Of a stretch of DNA of 64,000 nucleotides, positions 1,812 to 31,444 are shown piece after piece. The stretch comes from a virus (taxonomy: Duplodnaviria > Caudoviricetes), in the IMG/VR virus record IMGVR_UViG_3300028048_000042. One strand, given 5' to 3'. Within the stretch, counting starts at the first letter, position 1; every line of letters begins with the position of its first letter. Made by a program: the position numbers and the translations under genes. Under the pieces are notes generated by a model. That model was not told the origin of the DNA. It ran no database searches and was given only the letters and a program-made list of their open reading frames with translations.

Positions 1812-1819
1812 TAAATATG

Positions 1820-1850: not shown

Positions 1851-1943
1851 GTACGCATTTCAGTTAAATTCCTAAATAGTCTGAATTTTTAGGAATTTAG
1901 CAAAGTAGTGAAACAAAAAAATGTTATATGTTAAAAAAAGATA

Positions 1944-1975
1944 TTGACATACTTACATATATATGGTAATATAAT
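1944..1975 (+). promoter_or_regulatory. sigmaA/sigma70 early promoter (representative; similar promoters head nearly every cassette)
   Basis: TTGACA, 17-bp spacer ending TGG, TAATAT(AAT); upstream A-tract UP element. Confidence 0.85.
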
Positions 1976-2016
1976 GGTGTAAGAAGAAATAAGCACTCAA
2001 TAGGAGGTCGTTTGAA

Positions 2017-2463
2017 ATGGAATTGGATAGCATGAAAGTTCTCACTGTGATGAAAGAAGGTTCTTTGTATCGAAACTATGTTTATCCTGCTGATATTGCA
2101 GAAGATGATTTAGAAATGGAGGTGGCAAAAAAACTCGATGAATATGATGTAGACGATAGTTCGGATTTACTCTTTGACCTTATGGAAGATGGTTATATTT
2201 GTTATAACGATTTTGAGTTTTATTTGTCTGAAACAATTAAGGAAAATCCCAAAAAGGTACACATTAAACCGTTTACATTGGTTGGTGTTGATGGTAACGC
2301 ATGGTTTATCATGGGATATGTGCAGAATGCTATGAGAACTGCAAAAATGAGCAATGATGAAATCAAAGAGTATCACGGTAATGCTACAAGTGGAGACTAC
2401 AATCATTTGTTGTGTGTATCTATGGAAATGATTGATAAATGTAATAAAATGTTGGGGTTGTAA
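2017..2463 (+). CDS. hypothetical phage protein (acidic N-half; C-terminal DGNA-W-IMG...SGDY motif)
   Basis: RBS; flanked by promoter and terminator. Confidence 0.75.
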   Translation: MELDSMKVLTVMKEGSLYRNYVYPADIAEDDLEMEVAKKLDEYDVDDSSDLLFDLMEDGYICYNDFEFYLSETIKENPKKVHIKPFTLVGVDGNAWFIMGYVQNAMRTAKMSNDEIKEYHGNATSGDYNHLLCVSMEMIDKCNKMLGL

Positions 2464-2680
2464 AAACAAGGGGAATTTTCCCCTTGTTTTTTTTGTTTAC
2501 ATATTGAACAAATTCCTAAATAGTTTGAAAATTTAGGTGCTTAACGAAAAAGAGGTCTGCCACGAATTGCTGACAAACTTCTTTTTCGTAAATGTAAAAA
2601 TTTTTCTTGACATACATACATATATGTGGTAATATAATGGTGTAAGGGAAATTAAGGTTCTTGATTAGGAGGAACATAAA

Positions 2681-3217
2681 ATGATTAAGGTAAACGGCTT
2701 TGCACTCAAAAACTTCACTACTTGCATGACTGATGATGGATTCTTTATGGACGGAATACTTACCTATAATGGAAAGAACGTTGTGAGTTTCCATGATGAT
2801 GGTCGTGGTGGTGGAATGTATTTTAGAGATGGCAGTAAGAATGTTGGGGAATTGCAGGAAAGCATTCTCGCCACTTATAAAAAGCATGGATTGGATGATG
2901 ATTCAGAATGGTTCGGTAAAGAATTTGCTATGGAATGTTTTATAAATGATATGGCAAATCTTTATGACTTGATTAAAAAGATGAAAAAGCGCAAATGCGT
3001 AGGGGACAGACCTATTGTGTATTCTATTCTGCGTGAACAGAAGGGAATGAATCGCAAACATCTTTCTTTTGTCGGCGTATACTTGAACGATAAATGTCCT
3101 GCTGATTATCCTAAAGTCGTTTCTCAGATTGAGGAAAGTGAAAATGGCAAGGTTGTTGGTTACGTGGACGATATTAAAAATCGTACCATCAATGCTGAAA
3201 TTTTCAACATGGCTTGA
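2681..3217 (+). CDS. hypothetical phage protein (DDGRGG motif)
   Basis: AGGAGG RBS and promoter. Confidence 0.75.
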   Translation: MIKVNGFALKNFTTCMTDDGFFMDGILTYNGKNVVSFHDDGRGGGMYFRDGSKNVGELQESILATYKKHGLDDDSEWFGKEFAMECFINDMANLYDLIKKMKKRKCVGDRPIVYSILREQKGMNRKHLSFVGVYLNDKCPADYPKVVSQIEESENGKVVGYVDDIKNRTINAEIFNMA

Positions 3218-3231
3218 TGGAGGAATGAAAA

Positions 3232-3483
3232 GTGACGAATGAAAGAAAAGAAGAAATTAAAATGTTGCTTGATGAACATTTTGATAAAATCGGTGCAATT
3301 ATTCCAACATTTAAGGAAACGTTGAAGGAAATTCTTAAAAACGCACCTACGGAACACGAAATTAAAGAAGTCAATGAAGGGAGACTCGTTGACCTGTATG
3401 CGGAATTACATTGCCTGTATGCAGAAATAACAAATGTTGTGGATGAATATAATGATGTAAAAGAATATAAAGACAAAAAATAA
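3232..3483 (+). CDS. hypothetical protein
   Basis: GGAGG RBS, GTG start, terminator follows. Confidence 0.7.
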   Translation: MTNERKEEIKMLLDEHFDKIGAIIPTFKETLKEILKNAPTEHEIKEVNEGRLVDLYAELHCLYAEITNVVDEYNDVKEYKDKK

Positions 3484-3660
3484 AAAAAAGGGAGAAAACT
3501 CCCTTTTTTTTCTTGTCGAAATTCTTAAATTGTCTGAACATTTATGAATTTGTATATTAAAAAAATGGTGGTTTTGTTTGCGTAAGAATAAAAATTTTTC
3601 TTGACATACATTGTATATTATGATACTATAGTATTGTAAGTTTTTAAGGAGGTGTGTGAA

Positions 3661-3822
3661 ATGGCTAAGAATAAATTTGTTTCTTATGAGAAACTTTCCA
3701 AGAAGGAACAGAAGAAACGTAACGCGCAAAAGCGTGGTGATTGGGGACTAACCAAACCCATCACAAAGGTTGTACCTTCTAAGAAGGTTTATAACCGAAA
3801 AAAAGAGAAGTTTATTGCATAG
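3661..3822 (+). CDS. small basic protein MAKNKFVSYEKLSKKEQKKRNAQKRGDWG...KKVYNRKKEKFIA (53 aa, below ORF-track cutoff)
   Basis: own promoter, AGGAGG RBS and terminator. Confidence 0.75.
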   Translation: MAKNKFVSYEKLSKKEQKKRNAQKRGDWGLTKPITKVVPSKKVYNRKKEKFIA

Positions 3823-3920
3823 CTTCTCTTTTTTTTCGAAATAACAAAAAAAATATCATAACATACTTGATTTTTTCAACTTATTGTGTTATACTAAGTG
3901 TGATGTGAGGGAGGACAAAT

Positions 3921-4262
3921 ATGATGGAAAAGATTCAAGAAATACTGTTAAAAGATGGTCGGAAAATATCATTATACAACAAAGAAGGTTTGATGGCGTA
4001 TGGGTTTTCTACTCCACAAATAGATGCTTTGCCTTTTTGTGTGGATATAGAAAATGACGATTTACAAAATGCGTTTATCAAAACAAAAAGGTTAAATTTC
4101 TATAATATGATGGGTAAATACATTGGTATGATAGATAATGCACGGACAGGGTTTATGGAGCTTTTATCAGACATTAACACATATCATTTACAAGATTGTG
4201 TTGAAATGAAAAATAATTGCACCATGATAAAAGCTGAATTAATGACACGATTTAAATTCTAA
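3921..4262 (+). CDS. hypothetical protein
   Basis: promoter and GGAGG RBS. Confidence 0.7.
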   Translation: MMEKIQEILLKDGRKISLYNKEGLMAYGFSTPQIDALPFCVDIENDDLQNAFIKTKRLNFYNMMGKYIGMIDNARTGFMELLSDINTYHLQDCVEMKNNCTMIKAELMTRFKF

Positions 4263-4290
4263 AATACAAAATGCCCCATGCTAAACTGAC

Positions 4291-4587
4291 ATGGGGCGTT
4301 TAGAAAGGATAATAACAATGAGAATGATGAAGCCATTAGGCAAAAGAATGGAAAAATATGATTCTGAACGTAGGAAATTGATTAAAGAAATTTCAACAAG
4401 CAAATATATGAGGATTGAAGCAACTGCAAAACGAGAACCAAAGATTGTAAAGAACAACTTCATAAGACCTTATGTTTGCAAAGCCTGTGGACAGTTTTGT
4501 GAATGTATTCTTATTTCTCATGCAGAGCAACACGGATTTAAGACAAAGCAGGAATTTCTTGATAGTGGTTTGTTAGTACAAGTATGA
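4291..4587 (+). CDS. C2H2-like Zn-binding protein, paralog of 4611-4838
   Basis: YVCKACG...HAEQHG; true start may be 4318. Confidence 0.7.
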   Translation: MGRLERIITMRMMKPLGKRMEKYDSERRKLIKEISTSKYMRIEATAKREPKIVKNNFIRPYVCKACGQFCECILISHAEQHGFKTKQEFLDSGLLVQV

Positions 4588-4610
4588 ACAATTTGAGGGA
4601 GTGGCAATAA

Positions 4611-4838
4611 TTGAAGCACGATGTTAGTAAATGTGAAAGAAAAACAAAACGAGCAATATATGATGAAATTGAAAGGGAAAATCATCGGTTAAAAATCAAA
4701 CGTCCTAGCTATAATGGCAATTATGTTTGCAAATTGTGTGGTCAGTATTGCGAATGTGTGCTAACAATCCATGCAGAGCAACATGGATATAAAACAAAAA
4801 AAGAATTCCTTGAAAGTGGTAATCTTGTAGCGGTTTGA
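4611..4838 (+). CDS. C2H2-like Zn-binding protein, paralog of 4291-4587
   Basis: YVCKLCG...HAEQHG. Confidence 0.7.
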   Translation: MKHDVSKCERKTKRAIYDEIERENHRLKIKRPSYNGNYVCKLCGQYCECVLTIHAEQHGYKTKKEFLESGNLVAV

Positions 4839-5069
4839 GAATTGGGGGCATAATCCCCAATTCTTTTTTTGTTGTTTATACGCACTATCCCCAAATTCCT
4901 AAATAATCTGAAAATTTAGGAATTTGTCATAAGATAAAACTCTCCGCTTTTTGACATTTTTTCACAACGTGTAATGGCAAAATTTTTAAAAAAAAAAGAT
5001 ATTGACATACATACCAATGTATGATATTATAATAGTGTAAGCAAAAAACGTTTTCGGAGGTATAAAATC

Positions 5070-5285
5070 ATGGTACACATTGTTATTGAAAGTTTGAACG
5101 ATTTGGACGATACGACAAAAATTGTTGGTGTTTTCAACAACATTGAAAAGGCACAGGCTTGTTTTGAAAATTTGTTGAACAAATATGATGTAACAAATGA
5201 AGTCGAATATACAAATGCTTTGCAGGATTTGTATTACAGTGATGGTGGTGTGGAATTTCATGTGGAAAGTTGGGAGGTTGCTTAA
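5070..5285 (+). CDS. hypothetical protein
   Basis: promoter and GGAGG RBS. Confidence 0.75.
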   Translation: MVHIVIESLNDLDDTTKIVGVFNNIEKAQACFENLLNKYDVTNEVEYTNALQDLYYSDGGVEFHVESWEVA

Positions 5286-5286
5286 A

Positions 5287-5493
5287 ATGACATACAAGGA
5301 AAAATATTGCGCTTATATCCATAAGTCTTTCAAACAGATTTGGAAGGAGTTTGAAGATGTTCTTTTCGATGAAGTAAATGGAGAATTAATACTTTCCGAG
5401 GATTGGGAAATATACGATAAAGGTACATCAAGGGAATACATTTGGGCAAGCATGGAGGAAATTTTTGGTATCGTTATTGGAGAATATTTGTAA
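5287..5493 (+). CDS. hypothetical protein
   Basis: GGAGG within upstream gene end; start reassigned to MTYKEK. Confidence 0.7.
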   Translation: MTYKEKYCAYIHKSFKQIWKEFEDVLFDEVNGELILSEDWEIYDKGTSREYIWASMEEIFGIVIGEYL

Positions 5494-5716
5494 AATTCAT
5501 CACAAAGATATATTAAAGAAGGTTTTGTAAGTGGTCGTAGTAAGATGGTTGGATGATACGTGGCAAGTACATAATACAACAGTTGAAGTAGATACCTTGT
5601 CAAAAGCAGAATGGAAAATTTGGCAAGAAAACAAAAACTGTATAAGCATTATGTTTTCAAAATTCAATTGACAAAAACCTCCCTATTTGATATAATTTCA
5701 ATAGGGAGGTTTTTGT

Positions 5717-6415
5717 ATGGTTTCTGATGAAGATATATTGAAATTTGTAAGTCTCAGCAGATTGATGATGTGCTTACCACAAAATCATGTTCAAAAAATG
5801 GTACATTGCTATTTGGCTTGTCAATGTGATAAATCTAATGAAAGTTGGAGTATACCAATAAAAGAAAAAGAACTCTCGACAAGGATGATAATTCATTTTT
5901 TACAAACAACTTGTTTTAAAGATATGTTACAATATGAATTGTTTTGGAAAATTGCAAGCATATTGACGAAGCGATTTTATCTTAAAGTGATGGAAATTAG
6001 TTTTGAACAAGCGGTGGAAAATATGAAAATGTTTTTGACACATTTTTCATCTTTGAATGTTCCACAAAATTGTCAAGTGAATTATGTATATCATTCTGAC
6101 AAGCTAATTAAAACTTTAGAAAAACTTGAAAAAAATCATTGTATAAGAAGAATAACAGGACAGTTTAATACTTTAAATGAAATAAAAGAAATTATTGCAG
6201 ACGTAAAAGCAGAAAGCAAAAACAATGAATTTGTTTGCACAAGCAATTTTTATTCAATAAATAACCAACTGCCATTAATAACTTTTTGGTATTTAATACC
6301 ATTGAATCATGTATTTTCAAAATTATTAACTGTTGATACATTTTCCACTATATATAATATTGAAAATTTGAAAAAAATCAATTATACAACTATTACAGAC
6401 TTTATCTATGCGTAA
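5717..6415 (+). CDS. hypothetical protein
   Basis: 232-aa ORF; promoter and RBS embedded in a 17-bp inverted repeat. Confidence 0.7.
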   Translation: MVSDEDILKFVSLSRLMMCLPQNHVQKMVHCYLACQCDKSNESWSIPIKEKELSTRMIIHFLQTTCFKDMLQYELFWKIASILTKRFYLKVMEISFEQAVENMKMFLTHFSSLNVPQNCQVNYVYHSDKLIKTLEKLEKNHCIRRITGQFNTLNEIKEIIADVKAESKNNEFVCTSNFYSINNQLPLITFWYLIPLNHVFSKLLTVDTFSTIYNIENLKKINYTTITDFIYA

Positions 6416-6685
6416 AAAAAAAGAGAAGGTTTATTCCTTCTCTTTTTTTTTACCGTTCTATTTATATCTTTAGGAGGTAAATTCCTAAACTGTCTGAAAA
6501 TTTAGGAATTTGTACAAGGGGGGAGTTACCTTGCGACTTAACCATGAAAAAGTATCTTGCACCATTAAAAAAATACTTACAATAACTTAAAATATAATAA
6601 CAAATGAAAATAAATTTTGTTGACTTGTATATGAAATTGTGGTAACATGATAATGTAAATGAAATTGAGTTAAGGAGAAATAATT

Positions 6686-7192
6686 ATGCTTAAAGATACC
6701 ATAAAATCTATGCTGACAAACAGAAGGGAAAGACTTGTCGGTGAAGCGAAAAAAGAAAAAGAAAACTTTGAAAATCAAATGAAAAGATTGAAAAGTCTAA
6801 TGGTTTTGTTACAAGAAGATGTAGAAATTAGAAAAATGATTCATGAAGAAGGACTCGCATCTTATCTCGATGATTTTTTGTGGAATGCAAGGGATAATTC
6901 AATGGGATTTGCTCTTTATGCTAATAACAGTGAATTTCGTATTGGCGAAATCGTGCAAGATTTGAAATTTCTAGGTTTTTACAACGCAACATTACTCGTA
7001 GGCATTAACCCAACAGAGGAATCTTTTATCGTTGAAAGTTTTAACAGTCGAATGAGATATATTGATATAGACGAAGCTCCCCAATGTATGCAAACTTCTA
7101 ATTTTTTGAAGCGTTTTTGTGATGATTTAGAAGCGTTTCACACAGATTTTCAAAAATATGTAAAATCAATTAAATGGGAAGAAATTGATTAA
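6686..7192 (+). CDS. hypothetical protein
   Basis: RBS; terminator follows. Confidence 0.75.
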   Translation: MLKDTIKSMLTNRRERLVGEAKKEKENFENQMKRLKSLMVLLQEDVEIRKMIHEEGLASYLDDFLWNARDNSMGFALYANNSEFRIGEIVQDLKFLGFYNATLLVGINPTEESFIVESFNSRMRYIDIDEAPQCMQTSNFLKRFCDDLEAFHTDFQKYVKSIKWEEID

Positions 7193-7374
7193 GAACAGGG
7201 ATTTTCCTTGTTCTTTTTTTAATTGTTAGAATAAATTCCTAAAGATTCTGACTATTTAGAATTTCATATAGAAAGATAACAAAAAAATCTCATAACATAC
7301 TTGACAAAACTCCTAAAAGTGATATAATGATTATAGTAAATGAAATTGAGTTATCTAATAGGAGGTAATTTATT

Positions 7375-7653
7375 ATGACGAAGAATCTTATCAGCCCTGC
7401 AAGTGGTGCAAAGGTAGCTAATCAGTTTGAAGTGGTGGAAGGTAACAAAACAACCTTTGTATCTTACACAACGAAAATTGCAGAATTAGAAGGGGACAAA
7501 ATTACGTTGGATAACAACGCATTGGATTATAGCCAAACTACTTCTAAATGGTTATATCACTTCTTGCGTACTCATTTGGGTGGTAATTTTAATCGTTCAA
7601 TCATTTTGAGAAAGATTAAGGCAGGTAAAATTGCTACTGCAAATCTTAACTGA
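7375..7653 (+). CDS. phage protein with SYxTxI...YSxTTSK motif
   Basis: motif recalled from other phage proteins; strong RBS. Confidence 0.7.
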   Translation: MTKNLISPASGAKVANQFEVVEGNKTTFVSYTTKIAELEGDKITLDNNALDYSQTTSKWLYHFLRTHLGGNFNRSIILRKIKAGKIATANLN

Positions 7654-7695
7654 ACAAATAAGATGGATAATTTTTAATAAAAATATTGGGAGGAA

Positions 7696-8271
7696 TTGAA
7701 AATGACGAAAGAACATTTAGAGGAACTTATCAACGGAGTAATTAACCATATTGCGGTTGCCAATTCTGTTAGTGAACAGATTGAAGAACTTGACCGAATG
7801 GGCTTTACGAAAGATGATTTGCTTTACTTTGGCTATTCCAAAGAAGATTTAAAAGACCATTTTTCCGAAACTTTTCTATCGTTGTTTAAAGAATTGTATG
7901 ACGATACAGGCATTATTTGTGATGAAAATATGGATTTGTCACGATTGCTTCCTAGCAATGCAATGGATATTGCCATTAAAGTGGTAGAAGAATATGGCTA
8001 CAATACGAATTATGAGGATTTTACATGGGACAAAGTGCTTGATATGTGTAATGATATTGCTTGTGAGATTTGCAAAATTGACTTGGCAGATACAAGAAAA
8101 TGGAATGATATTTCAGAAGTTATGATGAAATACTTCTTTACTGATTATATAGATTCTCATGGTTATGATAAAAACCAAACTATGCAAATGGTTATTGGGG
8201 AATGTTATCACGAAGCTATTGCCAATCTTTGCACAGAACCTTCTGTTTTAGAATATTTTAAAAGAGTGTGA
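7696..8271 (+). CDS. acidic hypothetical protein
   Basis: GGAGG RBS. Confidence 0.75.
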   Translation: MKMTKEHLEELINGVINHIAVANSVSEQIEELDRMGFTKDDLLYFGYSKEDLKDHFSETFLSLFKELYDDTGIICDENMDLSRLLPSNAMDIAIKVVEEYGYNTNYEDFTWDKVLDMCNDIACEICKIDLADTRKWNDISEVMMKYFFTDYIDSHGYDKNQTMQMVIGECYHEAIANLCTEPSVLEYFKRV

Positions 8272-8415
8272 TACATAAAGGCAGGGAACAAAATACCCTG
8301 CCTTTATATTTATTTAAAATAAAAAAAATCCCATAACATACTTGACAAAACTCTTAAAAGTGATATAATGATTATAGTAAATGAAATTGTGTTATCTAAT
8401 AGGAGGTAATTCATT

Positions 8416-8910
8416 ATGGCAAAGAAAATTATTTGGACAAGTGAAATTAATATGGAAGATTGGAAAGAATTTTTAGAAGAAGAATATCCTAAAATAAAAG
8501 ATAAAAACGAACAATATGACCTTGTTCGTGATTATATCATTCGTAATTTAGAAGATGAACGTCAAAATCTTAACATTCCTACCAATGGAAGAATCCTTAT
8601 GATTGCAGATTTGGGTTTGTGGGATGGGCGTAGAAGTGGCTATATGATTATTGATAAACGAAACATCAATGCCATTCTTACAAATTACTATGAAGGAGAG
8701 ACTGAATATTACTCTGATGGGTGGAATATCAAAGGGGTTTGGAAGCATCATGACGGTACGAATTATTACGAATTTCGTGAAATTCGTGAAGGTAAGCACA
8801 TTGATAACCTTTTAAATCGTTTGTATTGTGGAAAACCTGTTAATCGCAAGATGATTAACTATTACACAAAATCAATTGCACCACAGGTAAATGCAGTATA
8901 TGGTTGGTAA
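8416..8910 (+). CDS. hypothetical phage protein (LGLWDG...HHDGTN motifs)
   Basis: promoter, RBS, terminator. Confidence 0.75.
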   Translation: MAKKIIWTSEINMEDWKEFLEEEYPKIKDKNEQYDLVRDYIIRNLEDERQNLNIPTNGRILMIADLGLWDGRRSGYMIIDKRNINAILTNYYEGETEYYSDGWNIKGVWKHHDGTNYYEFREIREGKHIDNLLNRLYCGKPVNRKMINYYTKSIAPQVNAVYGW

Positions 8911-9162
8911 AAAAAAGCAGGGAAACCTGCTTTTTTTTGTAATTATTCTTTGGCAAATTCCTAAACTTTCAGACTATTTAGGAATTTGCCAAGGAAATCT
9001 AAAATTGCTTATTTCCTCCAATAAGTATCGTAAAATGATATTTATTGGAGGAAATAGGCATATTTTTTAAAAAAGTTTCATATCATACTTGACATATATA
9101 CATATATATGGTAATATAATATTGTAAATGAAATTAAGCTATCCAACAGGAGGTAATCAAAA

Positions 9163-9606
9163 ATGGAAATGACAAAAACCAATTTGAAAAAGTTTCGTGC
9201 TGATTTCGCTAAAGCAGTGAAAGTCCTTGAAAAAAGTTATGGTGTAAAGTTGGAATTGGGTTCGATTTCGTATTCTGAAAACAACTTTACCACAAGACTG
9301 ACTGTTACCAATGGCGGTGATAACAGTGAGGTGGAAAAGACAAAATTTGAATGTGCAATTATCAATTTTTCTATGTATGGACTGACAAAAACTGATTATC
9401 GTAAAGAGTTTAAAGGAAAAGATGGAAAAACGTATCGGCTTGTAGGTGTAAAACCTAGAGCACGGAAAAACCCTTTTGTTATTGAGACAGTTGGCGGTAC
9501 ACGTTATACTTGTGCGCCTGAATTTTTGGGATTGGAAATGAATTTCAAAGGTTGGACTGTTACAGAACACAAAGCTGATGGCTCAATGAATACAATTAAT
9601 CTTTAA
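9163..9606 (+). CDS. hypothetical phage protein
   Basis: promoter, RBS, terminator. Confidence 0.75.
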   Translation: MEMTKTNLKKFRADFAKAVKVLEKSYGVKLELGSISYSENNFTTRLTVTNGGDNSEVEKTKFECAIINFSMYGLTKTDYRKEFKGKDGKTYRLVGVKPRARKNPFVIETVGGTRYTCAPEFLGLEMNFKGWTVTEHKADGSMNTINL

Positions 9607-9743
9607 TGACAGTAAAAGCAAGGTAAAATTTTGCCTTGCTTTTTTTGATATGATAAATTTAAAAAAACTGTTGACATACATATACAAATATGGTAATATA
9701 ATATTGTAAATGAAATTAAACTATCCAATAGGAGGTAATTAAA

Positions 9744-10151
9744 ATGAGTAGAGAAGCAAATGTAGAATTTAACGTTGAAGATACGGAAGCGGTTGTTGAA
9801 TGGTTTACTACTTTTTGTTGCATTGCCGAGGTGCACAACGATAATTTATGGATTTACGTTGATTGGGGAGAAACGGTCAAAGACACTTTGGAAAAATTTA
9901 TCAAAGATAATCCTACTATTGCAATAGATGTATTTGTAGACCAAGATGAAGCAGGTTATAGTGAGGATTGTCAAACAGATTATTACGTTCGCAATGGTAA
10001 AATCATTACTGTTGACGATAACAATACTACAATTTCCTTAGATAAATTGTCTAAAATGACAAGCAGTGAAATTAGAGATTGTATCGCAAATTATAAAGCC
10101 TTAATGGAGTCAATTAAGCCATTAGAAGAATGTGTTAAGGGGGATAAATAA
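9744..10151 (+). CDS. hypothetical protein
   Basis: promoter and RBS. Confidence 0.75.
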   Translation: MSREANVEFNVEDTEAVVEWFTTFCCIAEVHNDNLWIYVDWGETVKDTLEKFIKDNPTIAIDVFVDQDEAGYSEDCQTDYYVRNGKIITVDDNNTTISLDKLSKMTSSEIRDCIANYKALMESIKPLEECVKGDK

Positions 10152-10153
10152 TT

Positions 10154-10492: not shown

Positions 10493-10687
10493 TGAAAAGA
10501 CAGGGAAATTTCCCTGTCTTTTTGTTTACTATCATATTTATTAAATTCCTAAACAATCTGAAAATTTGGGAATTTAATAAATTGCGAGATTGGTAGGAAT
10601 ATATTTTTCAAAAAAAAAGTATTGACATGCATGGTTATTTATGATACAATGATATTGTAAATAAGAAATGGTTACTTTGAAAGGAAA

Positions 10688-22886: not shown

Positions 22887-23104
22887 AAAGTTATCAATCA
22901 AGAACTAACTGAGTTTAACACAAGCAGGGAAAACAATCCCTGCTTATTGTTTATTCACAAGAAAGTAAATTCCTAAACTTTCAGACTATTTAGGAATTTG
23001 TATAAAAAACATTCTCAAAAAAAAGTATTGACATATATATACCGTTCTGTTATAATAGAATCATAGAGAAAAGATAACGAATAGATGTTATGGAGGTATT
23101 TATC

Positions 23105-23476
23105 ATGAAAATCACTCGTTCAGAAATCAAAACCGAAGTTAGCTATGAGGTTCGTTTTTTTGTTGATAAAAACGGTGGCTATGGTTTCCCTTGTGATGAA
23201 TATGGGAACATTTTGAAAGATGAAATGACTAAGCAGGCTATCGAAAACTATGAATGGTGTCTGAGTAGGGAAGAAGAATTTCCTTACCTTTTCAATGATG
23301 TTGTGAAAAAAACGCATACTTACCGTGAACCTGCTCATGGCACTTGCAAATGCGGTGAGGAAGTTTATATGGTTAATGATTATATGGGAGCAGTACAATG
23401 CCCTAAATGCGGTCAGTGGTATAATTTGTTCGGACAAGAACTTCTTCCTCCTGAACAGTGGGAAGAAGATTATTAA
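23105..23476 (+). CDS. Zn-ribbon protein (CKCG...CPKCG...YNLFGQEL)
   Basis: RBS; Cys motifs. Confidence 0.75.
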   Translation: MKITRSEIKTEVSYEVRFFVDKNGGYGFPCDEYGNILKDEMTKQAIENYEWCLSREEEFPYLFNDVVKKTHTYREPAHGTCKCGEEVYMVNDYMGAVQCPKCGQWYNLFGQELLPPEQWEEDY

Positions 23477-23547
23477 GAGGGAAGCAGGTCATTAAGACCT
23501 GCATGGTTACAAAGTTGATTAAGATAATGTTTTGGAGGTTGATTAAA

Positions 23548-23730
23548 ATGACAATGGAACAGGTAGCAAAACAGTTGTTTGATGGTATGGAAATGCAATA
23601 CGAACACGAAAAAACGTTTATTTTGGAACGTTTGGAAGAATTGCGAAAAGAGCATAATTGGACGATTGAGCAATTAAATGAATATTGTTGGGAGGATTCC
23701 ACTAGAGCATTTGATTACATTTTTGGTTGA
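23548..23730 (+). CDS. small hypothetical protein
   Basis: GGAGG RBS; terminator follows. Confidence 0.65.
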   Translation: MTMEQVAKQLFDGMEMQYEHEKTFILERLEELRKEHNWTIEQLNEYCWEDSTRAFDYIFG

Positions 23731-24055
23731 TGCTTGTAGACCTTAATAGTGAAAATCTATTAAGGTTTTTTATTTTTGGTATTGACATACATATCAATCC
23801 TTGGTATAATATACTTGTAAATGATATTACATTAACAAATGGGGAAGGTGAAAAACACCTTCCTTTTTTATGTTCAAAAAGATTACCAATCCTTCGGATT
23901 ATCTATTCTTCTAATTCCTAAATTTTCAGACTATTTAGGAATTAGTCACAAGCCACTCATTCAAAATTTTTCATAACATATATCAAAAATACTTGACTTT
24001 TCTCTTATTTGTGTTATAATGTACTTGAAAATAATCTCAACAGGGGGTAATTGAA

Positions 24056-24322
24056 ATGAAAACGAAAATTGCTTATATTACAAAAGATGATAAAATGTTT
24101 TTTAATAAATCCGAAGCTATTGAGCACGAAGCTAAACTGTTTGGATTGACTGTTGATGAATACCATACGCTTAAAAAGTTGGAACAGATTGAACGTGATT
24201 GTTCTTTTGCAATCTCACATAGCAAAAATGAGGAAACGGAAAAGGCTTTTGATAAAGCTATTAATGATGTTATAATTTTCAGAAAAGCCCATAACCTTGA
24301 TGAAACGGATAACCTTATTTAA
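24056..24322 (+). CDS. hypothetical protein
   Basis: promoter and RBS. Confidence 0.7.
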   Translation: MKTKIAYITKDDKMFFNKSEAIEHEAKLFGLTVDEYHTLKKLEQIERDCSFAISHSKNEETEKAFDKAINDVIIFRKAHNLDETDNLI

Positions 24323-24337
24323 CAGAGGTGGACAAAA

Positions 24338-25288
24338 ATGGATATTATCGAGGTTTCTGAATTAGCTAAACGCTACTTTGAAAACATTGATTTGTTAGCA
24401 AAAAATCATTTTACCCATTGCAATCCTTGTTTTAAAAATATGAAACTAACGTTTGCTACAACCAACTTAGAACAAAGTACCGCAGTTGATTATATTAACA
24501 AATGTGGATTTACACATGGCGAAATAATTTGCAAAACAATTACATTGTCGGAAGAAGATAAAGTCAAATATCGTAAACAAGATTTGCAGATATATGAATT
24601 GGCATTTGCCAATATTAACAAAAAACTAAATACGAACTATACAATTATGAATTTTCCTTTTATGCCTAACAAGCATGATGTAAATAATGCTATTCGTCTA
24701 TTTAGAAAACGTTTGGTTACAAATGGATTCTTAAATGCTAAATATCGCCTTGAATACAAGGTAAATATGTATGTTGATTCTGAAATTGTAAATTTCGGTT
24801 CTTATGCAATTTGCCTTGATGAATTTGGCACACCGATTGATGATACATATCTAATATTAAATAGCGACAGTTGGTTTCTTAATAAAATGTCTGATTTGGA
24901 CGTTGATTATGATGAACGTTTACAGGCTAGTTGTGTAATTAAACTATTTAATGAGTTTATCTATTTTGCGTTACAAATGATGAACTGTAACAATGTGGTG
25001 GTTGATGTTCCTAAAAAACACAATCATATACATAAGAAAAAACATAAAAAGAATACTCATTATACTGTTACAATTGTCCCTTATGGCAATAGAAAACGTT
25101 ATGTAGGGGAAACTATACATACAGGCGATAAGCGTGCCTTACACAAGCGCAGAGGTCATTTCAAGGACTATACAAAGGGTAAAGGTCTGTTTGGCAGATT
25201 GAAAGGTATCTATTGGTTTGAGGAACTTGTGGCAGGTTCACTTAATGAAGGTCTTTCCACAAAAGATTATAAAGTTACTTTTTCATAA
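24338..25288 (+). CDS. phage protein with C-terminal HxRRGH motif
   Basis: ALHKRRGHFKDY...GIYW motif; 316 aa. Confidence 0.75.
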   Translation: MDIIEVSELAKRYFENIDLLAKNHFTHCNPCFKNMKLTFATTNLEQSTAVDYINKCGFTHGEIICKTITLSEEDKVKYRKQDLQIYELAFANINKKLNTNYTIMNFPFMPNKHDVNNAIRLFRKRLVTNGFLNAKYRLEYKVNMYVDSEIVNFGSYAICLDEFGTPIDDTYLILNSDSWFLNKMSDLDVDYDERLQASCVIKLFNEFIYFALQMMNCNNVVVDVPKKHNHIHKKKHKKNTHYTVTIVPYGNRKRYVGETIHTGDKRALHKRRGHFKDYTKGKGLFGRLKGIYWFEELVAGSLNEGLSTKDYKVTFS

Positions 25289-25367
25289 AAAAAATGCTTG
25301 ACATACATTCATATATATGTTATTATAACAATGTAAACAAAAACAAAACATTATGGAGGTCTTACTT

Positions 25368-25601
25368 ATGAAAAAGTTGTATGTAGAAGCCACAGAGGTT
25401 GTTAATTGGAAGGGTTATATTGAAGTGCCTGACGATTTCGATTTGGAAAAAGCAAAAGAGGAAGAAAACAGATTTTCAAATAGCTCTTGGATTTCTGATG
25501 ATGCTTTGAACGAATATCTTTTGGAAGCACAGGACAACACCATGTTCGTGGCAGATTGTGATGGTATGATTCTTCGACACATTGATGAAGAAGAAAGATA
25601 A
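25368..25601 (+). CDS. small acidic protein
   Basis: promoter and GGAGG RBS. Confidence 0.7.
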   Translation: MKKLYVEATEVVNWKGYIEVPDDFDLEKAKEEENRFSNSSWISDDALNEYLLEAQDNTMFVADCDGMILRHIDEEER

Positions 25602-25837
25602 AACATATCTTATCAGAACAAAAAAGAGACAGGGATTTAACCACCTGTCTTTTTTTTGTTCTACACATTATACAAATTCCTAAAAATTCAGACAATTTAG
25701 GAATTTTTTCTAATAAAATTAAACAAAAAGTTTTTCACAACATACGCTTGCATTTTATATTTTTCTGTGATATAATGAACACATAAGGTTAAGAGATGCT
25801 TTGTAGAAAATCAACTACCATATAGGAGGTAATTAAA

Positions 25838-26104
25838 ATGAATATGATTAGTTGTTGGGAAAAGATGTTGACTTTGATTTCACCATTGGAAAATGGAGAT
25901 ATTGAAGAAGGAAAAACTATATTCCTTGATGAAAGTTTTACGGAGTTTTTGGACTTTTGTAAGGAGAAAGGTTGTTTCCCTACGGAAGATGTATTTACGG
26001 TTATTCGTTACGGCGTATGTGATTATGAAGATGGAGACAGTAATTATTCCGAGGAAAACTATGAACGTAAAAATCAGCTTTTGAACGTTTTGTTTGATGA
26101 ATAA
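25838..26104 (+). CDS. acidic hypothetical protein
   Basis: AGGAGG RBS. Confidence 0.7.
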   Translation: MNMISCWEKMLTLISPLENGDIEEGKTIFLDESFTEFLDFCKEKGCFPTEDVFTVIRYGVCDYEDGDSNYSEENYERKNQLLNVLFDE

Positions 26105-26136
26105 ATACCAACATTTGATATTGGGAGGTAAGTACA

Positions 26137-26295
26137 ATGACTTATGAAAATGCGAAGAACCTTCACAACGAAGATGAAGTGGTTGTAAAGAAAACAGGTG
26201 CAATTATGCAGGTAGTAGAAACTACTGTATTCAATGATTTCGTGGAAGTTATGTTGGAAGATGGCAACACCTATCGTCACGATGAATTGAAATAA
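26137..26295 (+). CDS. 52-aa protein MTYENAKNLHNEDEVVVKKTG...RHDELK
   Basis: GGGAGG RBS; below ORF-track cutoff. Confidence 0.65.
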   Translation: MTYENAKNLHNEDEVVVKKTGAIMQVVETTVFNDFVEVMLEDGNTYRHDELK

Positions 26296-26354
26296 TTATG
26301 ATTTTAACAAAATATAGTATTGACAATTAACTCTTGTTTGTGATATAATTAAAA

Positions 26355-26678
26355 CATAAAGAATCACATTTGAAAGGTGGTGAATGACAATGTTGAAATA
26401 CGCAGTTATGCGAAAACTTTTCAAGATGGCAATAGTCGGCTTTCGTTAGTTATCTTAACTGAATTTACAACGATTATTTAATTAAAAAATTTAACTAATA
26501 TTTAAGAGAAAGACAGGGAATACTCGGCAATTGTCGAAAGCCTTGTATCGTCCCTGCTCTTTGATGATTTTCTGAACAACAAATGGTTCAACCGTAACTC
26601 CCATTTGTTATCTGAAATGACTAACTGTATATATCTGAATCATAAGAAAGACAGGAACTCAACCGCCTGTCTTTTTTT
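26355..26678 (+). ncRNA. candidate structured RNA cassette
   Basis: promoter at 26320-26349 and terminator at 26647-26678 enclose no ORF longer than about 20 aa; several hairpins. Confidence 0.35.
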
Positions 26679-26826
26679 ATACTTTACATTAAATAAATTC
26701 CTAAATTTTCAAACTATTTAGGAATTTATAGAATCATTTAAGATGTTCTTGGAGTTAAAAAATATTGACTGAGTATATTGTTTATTGTATAATAAGATTA
26801 GAATAATAAAAAAGAGGGAAATTCTA

Positions 26827-27024
26827 ATGGGGAAATTCAAAAGTTGCGAAAATTGCAAACACGCTCAAATTGATTGGTTTGGATTTTGGTTCGGTAGTGG
26901 GCCTTTTTTTTATCAATTTGAATGTAATGCAAAAAATATATGTGATATGAAATCTCGTGATGAAATATATGAGGAAACGAATTGCGATAAATGGCAAGAT
27001 TGTGAAATGGATAATTCACATTAA
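26827..27024 (+). CDS. small Cys-rich protein
   Basis: GAGGG RBS; CENC...C...C. Confidence 0.6.
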   Translation: MGKFKSCENCKHAQIDWFGFWFGSGPFFYQFECNAKNICDMKSRDEIYEETNCDKWQDCEMDNSH

Positions 27025-27113
27025 ATTCTATTTCGTAAAAAAAAGTATTGACAAAGCACATTATTTTTGATACAATATAACCATAAAGGAACACCTAATA
27101 GGAGGTAATAAAA

Positions 27114-28190
27114 ATGGATATTAAAAATTTGGCGCAATTCTTAAACAATGGCAATGATAAGGTTTTACAGGTAGAATATGACGGACGACTTCGCCTATTC
27201 GTTAAAATCGTTGATGAAAAAACACAAAGCGTTGATGTTTTTTGTGGGACTTTTGGGACAAGAGAATCAAACCATACTTTAAAGAAATGTTTTACGTTCT
27301 TCCCTAAAAAAAATACCATTGTGTTTGTTGATGGGCTTCCGCATGAAATGTTTATTTTGTATGGATTTGACGATAAAAATATAATGGAACTTTTGAAAGA
27401 ACAAGGATTTGTTTGCACCACTTTTAAGGACTTGACAAAGGAATTGGTAAACAAATATACAGACTATGTTAAAACAAGTCTTATGAAAAAATATCCAACG
27501 TTTGAATCCCTTAAAGAACAGTACGACCAACATTATAATGAGGATTGGTATAACTCGCAAGCTAAACAGTATCTTATGGCAAAAAAAGAACCTACATTAA
27601 TAATTGATATTCCGTCCTCTATTCAACAAAGCAATGAGGGTTTGTTAATTGATATTTGGGCAAATGATAATGTGCAGACAGCCGTAGAGATATATGCTGA
27701 ACGAATGGAAAGTCAGAATATCCAATTGTTGTTTTCATACTATGCAATGTTAAAAGCAATGAAGGACAACAAACTGACAAATGAAGAAAAAGAAGCATCT
27801 GACAAAGCAAATAAAATCTTGAATTTTGTCAAAATCAATAAAGCAAAATCCGTTACTATGGTATATGACACTGCGGAAATGCTTGCAAAAGCCAATGAAA
27901 TTGTCAACTGTGATGATTTTGAAACAAAACATCGTTATGGCTATCAGTCAAGCATGAAACAAATTTTAAGCTATTTGAAAGAACATAATGAAATTGAATT
28001 TAAAGTAAAAAACGAATACGGAGATATTGTTAAATCTAGCACCACTGATTTTTTAAGTACATATAATACCAATTTAAGTTCTATATTTAGGTTGGGAAGA
28101 TATGATTCGTTCCCTATTGAAATTGCGAAAATGTTTGGAAACCCAAAATACATGAAAGATTGTCTGTATCGAGGTAAATCTATTCTGTGA
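27114..28190 (+). CDS. hypothetical protein (358 aa)
   Basis: promoter, RBS, terminator. Confidence 0.8.
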   Translation: MDIKNLAQFLNNGNDKVLQVEYDGRLRLFVKIVDEKTQSVDVFCGTFGTRESNHTLKKCFTFFPKKNTIVFVDGLPHEMFILYGFDDKNIMELLKEQGFVCTTFKDLTKELVNKYTDYVKTSLMKKYPTFESLKEQYDQHYNEDWYNSQAKQYLMAKKEPTLIIDIPSSIQQSNEGLLIDIWANDNVQTAVEIYAERMESQNIQLLFSYYAMLKAMKDNKLTNEEKEASDKANKILNFVKINKAKSVTMVYDTAEMLAKANEIVNCDDFETKHRYGYQSSMKQILSYLKEHNEIEFKVKNEYGDIVKSSTTDFLSTYNTNLSSIFRLGRYDSFPIEIAKMFGNPKYMKDCLYRGKSIL

Positions 28191-28427
28191 TTAACATTGA
28201 TAAATGGGTAGGTGAGAAATCACCTGCCTTTTTATTTGCTCAAAACTGCTATATAAATTCCTAAATTTTCAAACTATTTAGGAATTTATATAATTATTTT
28301 TTTAAAAATTTTTTTAAAAAAAAATGTATAAACATGGTTGACATATACTCAATTTTTTGATACAATAAAGTCATGAGGTTGAGACATACCTTATAGAAAA
28401 TCAACTACCATGTAGGAGGTAATTAAA

Positions 28428-28781
28428 ATGATTTTTTGGGTAAAGGATTTGGAAAACCACGATACGATTTATTATGGCGAAGATAAACGAGAAATGAGAA
28501 AGGCAATTCGGTCTTATGCGGAGCAGGTCGAAGGTATGGAGTTCTTAGATTACTCTATTGCAAAAATCGAACCAATTGGTTTAAATGCAAAGGAAATAAA
28601 AAACGTCCTCAGTTATACAGTAAGGGATTGGGATAAGCCGAAAGGACAGAAAACCTTGTTTTATAAAGGTACTTCCTTGAAGGAAGCAAAGGAAATTGCA
28701 AAGAAACACAATCTTGACCGCATCAACAGATGGACAATTATGGAATGTGTTTGTAATCACACCATGACATATACATTCTAA
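28428..28781 (+). CDS. hypothetical protein
   Basis: promoter, RBS, terminator. Confidence 0.75.
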   Translation: MIFWVKDLENHDTIYYGEDKREMRKAIRSYAEQVEGMEFLDYSIAKIEPIGLNAKEIKNVLSYTVRDWDKPKGQKTLFYKGTSLKEAKEIAKKHNLDRINRWTIMECVCNHTMTYTF

Positions 28782-28973
28782 ACAAAGAGGGGAGAAATCC
28801 CCTCTTTTATTTTCTTCATATTTATATAAATTCCTAAATTTTCAAACTATTTAGGAATTTACCCAATTATTATCGCAAAATTTTTTTCAATAAATATAAA
28901 AAAACACTTGTATTTACATGCGTGAAATGTTATAATTAGATTATAGAAAAACACCTAACAGGAGGGAATTGAA

Positions 28974-30044
28974 ATGTCGAATAACAAATTTGATGAACGC
29001 TTTACAAATGCCTTGGAAGAACTCTCAGAATCCTTATTGAAAGTGGCTCAGTTATGTGATGATGAAACACATGGCGAAGATTTTAATACAGAAATCCTTG
29101 CTATTAAACTAGGTCACTTGTGGGGTAAACCGCTTGATGAAATGGCAGGAGATATAAAGGACGTTGTAGAAGAAATGAGAAATAAACTTATTGAAACAAA
29201 AATGAAAAAGATTGAGTTGGCAAAAATGTTTATGCAACCATACATTACTTTGAAAAAAGTAACGTCTATAAAAAACACAATTAATGGAAACGAATGTTTT
29301 TCTGTCGTACTTACGCATCAACGTGCGTTTTCCAACATGTTCGGAATTACAGATGAAGATGTGCAAAAAGGTTGTTATAGATTCTTGGTTAAAAATCCTT
29401 TTGAGGTCTTTCAAGCTACTTATAATGGCGTGGATATGATATATACCTATAATACAGAAAAGAATGAATACGTGCCTGTATGCTCTTGTGATGAATTGAA
29501 AACGAATGACGAACTTGCCGAAAAACTCAAACATTATTTGACTTTGAATGAAACCTTTGGCGATACTACAAAAATTTTGGAAAACTCTTTTGAAAATCCA
29601 CACGATGTTGATTTGTTGATTAAACAGGGAGATAATGAAATCGTTTGTAGTGCTATTCCTTTTTGCTATCCTGTGGGAAGATTTTTAGTGCCTGTTCGTG
29701 CTGACAATGAAAATGGTTTTGTGCTGACGGATGTGCCTTTTGAATATTCATTTTATCGCACAAGTTATTCCGATAAGGCTAGTTATGTTGTAGTGCCAAA
29801 AAATACACCAATTTTCTTTGAAACTACTTTTTACAGTGATTGCAAGTGCCTTGAGTATTTTTCGAATCAACATTTAACAGTTAAATTCTTTGAGTCTAAT
29901 ATAGAACGTTCTTATAATAGTCTTGGTGAATTTGTGAAAGATAAGCAGGTTGTTGAGATTTGCAAAAACAATGCCTTAGATAAATTAACTCTGATTGACC
30001 CCAAAGCAAAAGACACAAAAGTTTTTATGGTTGGGGAGGTATAA
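28974..30044 (+). CDS. hypothetical protein (356 aa)
   Basis: promoter, RBS, terminator. Confidence 0.8.
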   Translation: MSNNKFDERFTNALEELSESLLKVAQLCDDETHGEDFNTEILAIKLGHLWGKPLDEMAGDIKDVVEEMRNKLIETKMKKIELAKMFMQPYITLKKVTSIKNTINGNECFSVVLTHQRAFSNMFGITDEDVQKGCYRFLVKNPFEVFQATYNGVDMIYTYNTEKNEYVPVCSCDELKTNDELAEKLKHYLTLNETFGDTTKILENSFENPHDVDLLIKQGDNEIVCSAIPFCYPVGRFLVPVRADNENGFVLTDVPFEYSFYRTSYSDKASYVVVPKNTPIFFETTFYSDCKCLEYFSNQHLTVKFFESNIERSYNSLGEFVKDKQVVEICKNNALDKLTLIDPKAKDTKVFMVGEV

Positions 30045-30267
30045 ATAAAATTAAGACAGGGAGTAAAATCCCTGTCTGTTTTTTTTGTTATTTAATAATT
30101 CAAATTCCTAAATTTTCTGATAATTTATGAATTTGATTGGACACCTTTTTTGAAAAATCTTTTCAAAAAAAATTATTGACATATATATAATCATCTGCTA
30201 TAATATAATCAAAGGTTGAGAGAAAAATAACTCAACGAAAAAGTTTCTACAACAGGAGGAAATCACC

Positions 30268-30561
30268 ATGAAAATGAACATCAACAATGCAGGAGACTTC
30301 GTGAAGGACGCTTTTCTGAATGGCTATCTGAAAGCCTTACAGGATTTGGCTGATTGGGAGATTAACCATCTCGACCAAGATGATTCCAATGCAGTAAAAG
30401 AGTGGGACAATAACTACGCTGTTAGGGTTGTTATGAGAGGTAAAATCCTCGGTATCAGTGAGGAAACGTCCAACGAGAATTATGCCAAAGTCCTTGAAGC
30501 CAAGGTCAATGCAATGGCTACTCCGTGGAAAGAATACAACGTTGATGTCGTGGTCGCTTAA
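30268..30561 (+). CDS. hypothetical protein
   Basis: promoter, RBS, terminator. Confidence 0.75.
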   Translation: MKMNINNAGDFVKDAFLNGYLKALQDLADWEINHLDQDDSNAVKEWDNNYAVRVVMRGKILGISEETSNENYAKVLEAKVNAMATPWKEYNVDVVVA

Positions 30562-30802
30562 CTGACAAGTCATATAATCTGAGGGGGAGAAATCCCCTTC
30601 TTTTGCGTTCGTTTTTTTTTGCAGCATATCTGTATAAATTCCTAAATAGTCTGAACATTTAGGAATTTAATTAAGCACCTTTAAAAAAAACCTTTTATTT
30701 TTTTAAAAAATGTATTGACATACATACAAAATTTTGGTACAATATATTTGTAAGGTTGAGAGATACCTAAGAAATAAAATTACCCAATAGGAGGAATTTA
30801 AC

Positions 30803-31147
30803 ATGTTAGAATTTGTAAAGGTAGAAGAAAAGGAAAGTCGTTTTTTTGAAGGTGCAATTACAGAGGTTTTTGAAAGCCATAATAAGCTGAATGGTAGAAC
30901 GTACCTGTTTGAAATAACCACTGATGATAATATCGCTAGTGTATCGGTGTTGCGTTTGCGCAAAGGGAGTAAGTTCCTGTATGACCAAACTTATATCCTC
31001 GACAAAATATCCTTCAATTATGATGATAACGCCGATAAAAAGCGTATGAGAGAAATATTGCTTCGGAATTGCATCAAAAAATACGCTACATATAAGAGCG
31101 ACCTGTATCAGTTCTTCTCTTTGACATTGGCTAATATCGCTTATTAA
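30803..31147 (+). CDS. hypothetical protein (last cassette of the array)
   Basis: promoter, RBS, terminator. Confidence 0.75.
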   Translation: MLEFVKVEEKESRFFEGAITEVFESHNKLNGRTYLFEITTDDNIASVSVLRLRKGSKFLYDQTYILDKISFNYDDNADKKRMREILLRNCIKKYATYKSDLYQFFSLTLANIAY

Positions 31148-31444
31148 AAAATGGCAGGGATAATCCCTGCTTTTTTATTTCACGTTAAATTGTCAGAACA
31201 TTTAGGAATTTATTTGCTCTGAATTGTCTGAATATTTAGGAATATATATTCTAAAACCGTGCATTTTTTTAAAGCCGTTTTTAGGGGTATTTTTACCCCC
31301 TATATGGCGAACCCATCGCTCAAAAATCACATGAAAATTTTTAGGCTTTTTTGCAGAATCTCTTACGGAGCGTAGGCAATAAGTGCCAATAAGTGTGGAG
31401 GGAGCATATACATTGAGTGCAGAGAAAAGGAAAAACACTTTTTC

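Follow-up and report, generated by a model that had tools for sequence, protein, structure and literature searches.

A Near-Invariant Palindrome behind the Terminators of an Early Gene Array in an Uncultured Jumbo Phage, a Candidate Dispersed Operator with CodY-Like Boxes

Most of the roughly 55 early gene units of the phage studied here carry a 33-base palindrome placed ~20 bases behind the terminator. With about even confidence, we read this element as a dispersed operator that would seal or regulate the early units, with CodY as the candidate binder and cassette shuffling as a by-product. The original prediction had named an array of binding sites as an alternative to a recombination platform; we prefer that alternative for the symmetry of the element, its locking to terminators, and its conservation in relatives. 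The window referred to below is the whole 64,000-nucleotide stretch of DNA that was analyzed (IMGVR_UViG_3300028048_000042). The phage is a giant (jumbo), uncultured virus with a 318-kb genome, and its host is a low-GC bacterium.

The window contains 25 full copies of the palindrome, spanning positions 1866 to 30668, and 2 half copies; shuffled sequences give an expectation of 0, and the predicted number of about 25 is confirmed. The count comprises 23 matches with ≤3 mismatches, the copy at 16389..16422, which has a 12-nt center, and the copy at 17414..17446, whose left arm is decayed here and intact in relatives L013 and L025. No strand is assigned to the copies. The first one (1866..1898) has perfect arms, that at 3519..3551 has 2 mismatches, and further copies lie at 6479..6511, 13784..13816, 18351..18383, 21409..21441, 22967..22999, 25674..25706, 26695..26727, and 28255..28287. 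The last full copy is found at 30636..30668, and the array ends with the two half copies, each a center plus right arm (31177-31211 and 31217-31245, within 31177..31245). From 31.3 to 64 kb there is no element copy, the sole candidate being a 5-mismatch chance match, in agreement with the predicted abrupt end at 31.2 kb. The apparent start at 1866 is an effect of the window edge. ENA contig k141_282527 is identical to window positions 1-11326 and carries 15 further full copies, back to about -29.6 kb. The whole array thus extends from about -29.6 kb to +31.2 kb (~61 kb) with 40 full copies; the number per phage genome is put at about 45. The window part of the array (1..31245, + strand, continuing about 29.6 kb upstream) holds about 60 small open reading frames (ORFs), all on the + strand; almost none belongs to a known family. 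Every unit is equipped with a TTGACA/TATAAT promoter and a terminator of its own, so that the predicted layout of terminator, element, promoter, and small + strand ORFs stands as described, and the 33 bp recur with similar promoters and terminators every ~1.5 kb.

The consensus over 52 copies is a symmetric 35-bp palindrome, and the symmetric 33- to 35-bp site reads Y-AAATTCCTAAA-TWKTC-W-GAMWA-TTTAGGAATTT-R. In the half-site table for these copies, positions 1-11 are 94-100% conserved, T15 is invariant, and only positions 13 and 14 are free. One dominant subfamily looks directional because of these two weakly constrained positions per half. The asymmetric, two-orientation core of the original prediction is therefore not upheld: the consensus is symmetric, and core orientation is reversed at 2-3 orthologous sites in relatives with collinear flanks (2510..2542 against L020:672, and 8955..8987 against L023:724). 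Fourteen adjacent copy pairs have opposite cores, yet inverted cassettes are absent: all genes lie on the + strand, as had been claimed. Compensatory variation in the arms is absent beyond two cases, the symmetric double changes at 23912..23944 (at both outer ends) and at L016:301, and the terminator stems beside the element vary between copies yet still pair. The conserved property of the element is thus its sequence, not its structure. The flanks lengthen the palindrome more often than chance (p < 5e-5; a second test was weak), with complementary flanks adding 7 bp to the arms at 10543..10575 (1 mismatch) and 6 bp at 13163..13195. This counts against a pure double-stranded DNA operator, which does not predict such extension.

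The distance from the end of the terminator stem to the element has a median of 19 bp in the window and 21 bp over 35 sites in the 61 kb, which confirms the predicted position downstream of terminators. The distance from the element to the next -35 varies, as predicted, from 7 bp (at 19788..19820) to 108 bp. The element is tied to terminators, not to promoters. Transcription termination occurs about 8 nt after the terminator stem, so the left edge of the element would lie 11-13 bp ahead of the active site, which would correspond to the front of the RNA polymerase footprint at the terminator. The claim that the element marks cassette boundaries holds for most units and fails for 16 of 59 terminator-like hairpins, which have no element; these have a promoter within 250 bp, at a median of 31 bp behind the stem. 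At three of the window copies, as in L007, a different phage contig, the element has a terminator-like hairpin on its opposite side. Conserved hairpins follow the copies at 2510..2542 (2549-2590, bidirectional; the right arm of this copy is decayed), 11647..11679 (11684-), and 15465..15497 (15504-). Both the hairpins on the other side and the roughly 16 boundaries without an element are points against an operator.

The element is kept at 12 of 12 orthologous sites compared in relatives of 75-92% identity. Extra copies in the relatives' contigs (only those that did not themselves bring their contig into the search were tallied) are perfect except for 5 with 1-2 arm mismatches. L007 has the same element, and its element plus hairpin is 92% identical. 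A search for the exact full element in 185,579 representative bacterial genomes gave only 2 chance matches, both without the TCWGA center. Metagenomic relatives show gain, loss, replacement, and translocation of cassettes. Homology to L019 ends at the right edge of the copy at 4893..4925 and begins at the left edge of that at 7233..7265, whose right arm has a 1-base deletion, so these junctions lie exactly at element edges. L014 has an extra cassette after the copy at 28828..28860, flanked by a 79-bp repeat made of terminator plus element. Other junctions lie in promoters (L023 and L004), and those in promoters and at gene ends are about as frequent as those at the element. The expected cassette turnover is thus found, with some junctions at element edges; confinement of the junctions to the element is not. 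In a strain with 98.9-100% identity, the net length of the array is unchanged.

These junctions and the turnover among relatives bear out the predicted PeSL-like role, and cassette shuffling through repeated regulatory modules is real. PeSLs are a precedent for portable homology modules of promoter and stem-loop (PMC2839356). As in T4-type phages, modules of a strong sigma-70-type promoter and a terminator surround ORFans in a plastic region, and relatives vary by insertion, deletion, and replacement of cassettes with junctions in the modules (PMC2839356). Exchange between adjacent PeSL modules also yields mini-circles. In contrast to this array, PeSLs have no third conserved palindromic component, and the window showed no T4-type core gene. 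The array provides a clear instance of such shuffling beyond the T4 group.

The central 15 bp of the element match the CodY box AATTTTCWGAAAATT with 1-4 mismatches in 25 of 25 window copies (1 mismatch at 30102..30134); for the outer boxes, which are offset by 9 bp, the usual number is 5. Three boxes at this 9-bp offset span just the 33 bp of the element, their mismatches running 5, at most 4, and 5. CodY sites are 15-nt boxes, usually two or more overlapping by 6 nt; the Bacillus subtilis ureA triple site, with 5, 2, and 3 mismatches, assembles three CodY dimers; and natural sites are very variable in sequence (PMC10415144). The element's pattern is comparable with that of ureA, and its positions equivalent to box T6 and A10 are invariant. 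Close to the left end of the array, at about -25.8 kb, there are four boxes with 0-1 mismatch, two of them perfect; outside the elements, the window contains CodY-like boxes at background numbers only. By its boxes, the element thus qualifies as a candidate CodY operator of the Bacillota type. It differs from known CodY operators in being phage-borne, in its about 45 copies, and in standing behind terminators rather than over promoters, and its outer parts are invariant and nonconsensus, unlike the highly variable CodY sites found in nature. Five arm positions that never vary deviate from the CodY consensus, which would speak more for a dedicated binder or for concerted evolution. The center of the dominant subfamily has 3 mismatches to the CodY box, though perfect boxes exist.

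We propose that an oligomeric DNA-binding protein docks on the symmetric 33- to 35-bp double-stranded site. The best candidate would be a putative host CodY, or a protein of CodY-like specificity, bound as three overlapping dimers; the main alternative binder would be a dedicated phage factor. Placed after the terminators of most early units at about one RNA polymerase footprint, the bound protein could act as a stop sign or insulator, holding polymerase at the terminator and preventing read-through into the next strong-promoter unit. CodY is a documented transcription roadblock (PMC10310618). Where the element abuts a promoter, repression may be added, and the whole early block would be coupled to one regulator. 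The same 33 bp return every ~1.5 kb along with promoters and terminators that are similar, and this repetition also gives PeSL-like shuffling its homology, as a by-product.

Dispersed phage operators are known in stoperators (PMC9283540) and in SPBRE, bound by MrpR (PMC10516654), and the array resembles them in its many conserved intergenic copies (40) kept at orthologous sites (12 of 12). The stoperators of cluster A mycobacteriophages (L5 gp71 type) are likewise short intergenic sites in dozens of copies, spread genome-wide, and are thought to stop elongating polymerase besides repressing promoters (PMC9283540). They are 13-14 bp long, asymmetric, oriented with transcription, bound by a monomer, and found in temperate phages (PMC9283540), whereas the element here is palindromic, 33 bp long, without preference for either orientation, and tied to intrinsic terminators. 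SPBRE is also a repeated, conserved intergenic element of early genes in a large Bacillota phage, SPbeta, and was known from sequence long before the master repressor MrpR/YopR was found as its binder (PMC10516654). It differs in having about 10 copies, in promoter regions, and a binder with a tyrosine recombinase fold (PMC10516654); neither an MrpR-like nor a gp71-like gene was seen in the ~100 kb inspected here.

The original prediction inferred an integron- or lox/dif-like site for acquiring and excising cassettes, a reading that the comparisons already largely refute and that we consider highly improbable. Lox/dif/FRT-type sites have an asymmetric 6- to 8-bp spacer that sets directionality; integrons are marked by an adjacent intI tyrosine recombinase with attI and Pc and by promoterless cassettes, and their attC sites have variable sequence and a conserved imperfect structure. 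The element shares with all of these inverted arms, 11 bp long here, around a central spacer at cassette boundaries, and cassettes do turn over among relatives. Its spacer, however, is 11 bp long and symmetric, orientation flips at orthologous sites, and the 14 opposite-core pairs without inversion leave no orientation logic, so a lox/dif/FRT-type site was rejected. An integron was rejected as well, since the inspected DNA contains no intI-type recombinase, the units carry their own promoters and terminators, and the element is nearly invariant in all copies. Junctions are also not confined to the element. Neither the 60 array ORFs nor precomputed Pfam tables for roughly 100 kb (about -37 to +49 kb) of the 318-kb genome contained a recombinase family, in line with the prediction that none is visible in the window, and the same search gave no HTH or other DNA-binding family. 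That search also bears on the same operator array bound by a dedicated phage regulator, as MrpR binds SPBRE and gp71 binds stoperators, which we hold possible but rather doubtful. Such a protein, made early, would shut off or insulate the roughly 55 host sigma-A units at the switch to the transcription program of the phage itself, and the CodY likeness would be coincidence or mimicry. The invariance of non-CodY arm positions in 52 copies, the absence of the exact element from bacterial genomes save the 2 chance matches, and the two precedents speak for it. The lack of an HTH, recombinase-fold, or other DNA-binding family in the DNA inspected, the same element in the different phage contig L007, and the correspondence of the element center to the CodY consensus speak against it.

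The element might also have no binder and serve, with terminator and promoter, as a portable homology block for PeSL-like recombination and cassette exchange. We think this unlikely: the L019 and L014 junctions, the segment common to L007, and the PeSL precedent (PMC2839356) agree with it, but evolvability alone would not keep 22 arm positions near 100% while flanks diverge by 10-25%, junctions fall as often in promoters and gene ends, and the near-identical strain shows no net length change. A sponge, in which the about 45 high-affinity sites of each genome, amplified as the DNA replicates, would titrate CodY and so derepress host amino acid and nucleotide supply genes, is less likely still; copy number and CodY-box content would suit it, but it would require no constant spacing to terminators and no restriction to the early block. 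We give very little credence to a hairpin in read-through RNA or single-stranded DNA (for processing or 3′ protection) or to a REP/MITE-type mobile palindrome. The predicted RNA hairpin is stable (-12 to -19 kcal/mol, z of -4 to -8), and the flank extension and the two symmetric double changes are consistent with these readings. However, the element is rarely transcribed because it lies behind strong terminators, it works in both orientations with differing loops, and arm covariation is otherwise absent. Two TnpB genes in the window might suggest mobility, but no copy lies near their ends, TnpA or RAYT was not found, and none of the 12 orthologous sites shows presence/absence polymorphism. The tiny mobile palindrome also offered in the original prediction, like a REP/BIME or MITE-like element, was rejected on these grounds.

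How large phages stop dozens of very strong, codirectional early promoters from colliding, and how they time or condition their early block, is poorly understood. If the operator reading is true, placing a single protein-binding site at constant spacing after intrinsic terminators would be a simple insulator design. The analysis also shows that a seemingly directional core does not by itself make a palindrome a recombination site. We suggest only tentatively that a lytic jumbo phage has placed the entire ~61-kb early region under CodY, the nutrient sensor of its host. If so, each of about 45 triple CodY operators would follow a terminator at the distance of one polymerase footprint, terminator read-through and the insulation of units would depend on the host level of branched-chain amino acids and of GTP, and the replicated sites might titrate CodY as well. 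Early expression in the phage would then be tied directly to the nutrition of its host.

The pattern AAATTCCTAAA-N11-TTTAGGAATTT, which describes the element as two 11-bp arms around an 11-nt core, has 23 matches in the window with three or fewer mismatches and none in 100 shuffles. A looser search adds two copies, at 16389 (12-nt centre) and 17414 (left arm decayed), in agreement with the roughly 25 copies of the original prediction. The predicted unit was found in the same layout: an intrinsic terminator, the element, a TTGACA-N17-TATAAT promoter, and one to four small plus-strand ORFs. The array ends in two half copies, each made of the centre and right arm, at 31177-31245, and no credible element was found past 31.3 kb in the window by the looser pattern search, so the right-hand limit of the predicted interval, 1866-31245, was correct. 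The left-hand limit was not. ENA contig k141_282527 (206 kb) matches window 1-11326 at 100% identity and window 28092-44178 at 98.9% (154 mismatches and 21 gaps). It carries 15 further full copies upstream, back to about -29.6 kb (negative coordinates lie upstream of the window start), plus decayed ones, and the apparent start at 1866 is thus an effect of the window edge. The whole array comprises 40 full copies across about 61 kb, with every gene on the plus strand, as had been stated for the cassettes.

On k141_282527, the coordinate offset is equal on both flanks of window 11.3-28.1 kb, so there is no net indel between them; the contig was compared on either side of this interval, and searches with four proteins encoded in window 16-28 kb yielded short Logan contigs alone. 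The presence of 100% and 98.9% stretches in one contig suggests, as a reading of the alignments, recent recombination between co-circulating strains. Scanning IMG/VR with the exact element gave no match, and the 35 single matches obtained there with the centre and right arm were all attributable to chance and inside coding sequence. Two chance matches, both without the conserved centre, were obtained from bacterial genome contigs. Directly past the array, window 31250-32040 holds about 800 bp without a convincing ORF, with G-rich stretches and three 65-nt direct repeats (at 31440, 31704, and 31848; 77 to 86% identical); it may serve as an origin or boundary element, or encode several small RNAs.

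The core had been described as asymmetric and present in two orientations, a description that did not survive alignment. Fifty-two copies from the window and its metagenomic relatives were each split into two half sites, which read Y, AAATTCCTAAA (94 to 100% conserved), T, W (A 50/T 50), K (G 43/T 44/A 17), an invariant T, C (76%), and a central W, which makes the element consensus palindromic and symmetric over 35 bp. The apparent pair of orientations stems from a single dominant subfamily (TAGTTTGAAAA) that is present both ways round; among the copies outside it, every mixture of half sites occurs. The core is flipped in 2 to 3 of about 12 orthologous pairs, with collinear flanks for the copies at 2510 (versus metagenome contig L020:672) and 8955 (versus L023:724) and with nonhomologous flanks for the copy at 15465 (versus L013:23).

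The position of the element is fixed relative to terminators, not promoters. In the window, a median of 19 bp separates the terminator stem end from the element (about 12 bp when counted from the last T of the run), whereas the distance to the next -35 box spans 7 to 108 bp, matching the predicted variability (about 8 to over 100 bp). The 61 kb contain 59 terminator-like hairpins, 35 of which have an element behind them, at a median distance of 21 bp; another 16 lack the element and have a promoter within 250 bp, with the -35 box a median of 31 bp behind the stem, and 8 have neither. Intrinsic termination occurs about 8 nt past the stem, which places the left edge of the element about 11 to 13 bp downstream of the polymerase active site at release. 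That edge would coincide with the front of the polymerase footprint, the geometry expected of a roadblock holding polymerase on the terminator.

Selection on the element appears to act on its sequence. The arms show near-zero variation, with compensatory changes limited to two symmetric double changes, whereas neighbouring terminator stems vary in sequence among copies and keep their pairing. The element is retained at 12 of 12 orthologous positions in relatives of 75 to 92% identity, and of the extra copies in relatives' contigs (counting those that had not themselves recruited the contig into the search), five have one or two arm mismatches and the others are perfect. Nearly invariant arms with almost no compensation, varying stems, and complete retention favour a candidate sequence-specific double-stranded DNA binder over a hairpin. 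Folded as RNA, the element reaches -12 to -19 kcal/mol, but its place behind strong terminators and its function both ways round count against an RNA hairpin role. The DNA-binder reading fits two features poorly: in 6 of 25 copies, flanks add 4 to 7 variable base pairs to the palindrome (p < 5e-5, permutation), and the first flanking position tends weakly to symmetry. Subfamily descent or templated palindrome correction could be the cause.

As to the binder, the central 15 bp differ from the CodY consensus AATTTTCWGAAAATT by 1 to 4 mismatches in 25 of 25 window copies. The outer 15-mers, shifted by 9 bp, mostly have 5 mismatches, and the 33 bp equal exactly three 15-nt boxes with 6-nt overlaps; CodY-like boxes occur only at background numbers in the rest of the window. 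Overlapping CodY operators are known: in ureA, three CodY dimers assemble on boxes with 5, 2, and 3 mismatches, and CodY is reported to recognise DNA shape through few base contacts and to tolerate steps of the kind present in the element (PMC10415144). It is also a documented roadblock (PMC10310618). Four CodY boxes with 0 or 1 mismatch, two of them perfect, lie at about -25.8 kb (upstream stretch L038:1100-1215), close to the left limit of the array and ahead of the promoter that serves an Rnl1-type RNA ligase cassette. Three of these boxes are followed by the right arm of the element but lack its left arm, and a further full copy lies to their left, at -29.6 kb. An argument against CodY is that non-consensus arm positions are invariant, while real CodY sites vary widely. 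Pfam and PHROGs searches of 60 array ORFs returned only DUFs and unnamed families, and no helix-turn-helix or recombinase family was found among these ORFs or in precomputed tables for about 100 kb, extending the original observation that no recombinase is visible in the window. One full and one half copy also occur in L007, a contig of another phage (PhoH, primase, DUF932), adjoining a shared conserved hairpin. This bidirectional terminator-like structure (A-run, GAGGT-type stem, T-run) lies 4 to 6 bp right of three elements in the window (2549-2590, 11684-11725, and 15504-15545) and at 11047-11094 and 9400-9451 in L007. Judged from these sequences, the element in L007 would be compatible both with a host factor and with horizontal module transfer.

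The original prediction of an integron-like or PeSL-like platform called for cassette gain, loss, or reordering in relatives, and these were seen in metagenome contigs at 75 to 92% identity to the window. In L010 one gene is missing and another is replaced; 13288-14343 is absent from L022, and L023 lacks 6613-8316 and has one cassette duplicated. L019 has a translocated cassette and a 366-bp gene inserted directly after the copy at 4893, while additional cassettes lie between 79-bp repeats of terminator plus element in L014 and between 26-bp promoter repeats in L004. Paralogous array genes (20825-21139 and 22293-22601, 68% amino acid identity; 4291-4587 and 4611-4838, 62%) are evidence of local duplication. 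Of the junctions, 3 to 4 coincide with element edges, 3 lie inside promoters, and about 5 are located at gene ends or within them. These changes and the spread of junctions match the homologous exchange between repeated regulatory modules known for PeSLs (PMC2839356), so the PeSL-like part of the prediction holds. Site-specific recombination differs in that array junctions also fall in promoters and gene ends, and no inverted cassettes were found in the compared relatives. Moreover, a recombinase sensing core direction would invert cassettes; across the full array, 17 cores point one way and 20 the other, with 14 adjacent pairs opposed, yet all genes are on the plus strand, which argues against such a recombinase. 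An integron- or lox-type site is not supported, given the symmetric consensus, the flipped cores, and the lack of any inverted cassette or recombinase in these searches. A promoter for a phage sigma factor was dropped because downstream sequence is not conserved, and a link to TnpB ends because no sequence is shared; replication iterons, packaging sites, and restriction decoys were considered and dropped.

The window has a GC content of 31%. A 10.5-kb megablast query found no close relatives in 50,697 phage records, no Rfam match or tRNA was found in the window, and a protein search of the phage collection with two array ORFs returned only distant mycobacteriophage hypotheticals. A homologue search with a 358-amino-acid array protein yielded only two relatives, both on short contigs. 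The cluster containing one array protein has a longest contig of 318 kb, indicating a jumbo phage of a low-GC host. A Thg1-like tRNA-His guanylyltransferase (35530-36315; no Thg1 relatives found in IMG/VR), a microbial PARG-like protein (38092-38976), a CCA-adding enzyme (53681-54910), and the Rnl1 RNA ligase (L038:1325-2518) together resemble a toolkit for tRNA repair and for countering ADP-ribosylation, probably aimed against host defences. Two TnpB (IS605 OrfB) genes, at 43049-44161 (minus strand) and 50254-51366 (plus strand), are about 84% identical at the DNA level; collinearity with k141_282527 ends 17 bp past the 5′ end of the former, marking a rearrangement breakpoint at this TnpB element.

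The best explanation is that the element is a dispersed, symmetric, terminator-locked predicted operator, for which a CodY-type protein is the foremost candidate binder. Protein bound to it would hold polymerase at the terminator, as a roadblock or insulator, and the PeSL-like cassette shuffling is supported as a by-product of the element. Known analogues are stoperators (PMC9283540), the SPbeta repeated element bound by MrpR (PMC10516654), and PeSLs; the element is set apart from these by being locked to terminators, by its design of three boxes in 33 bp, and by its copy number.
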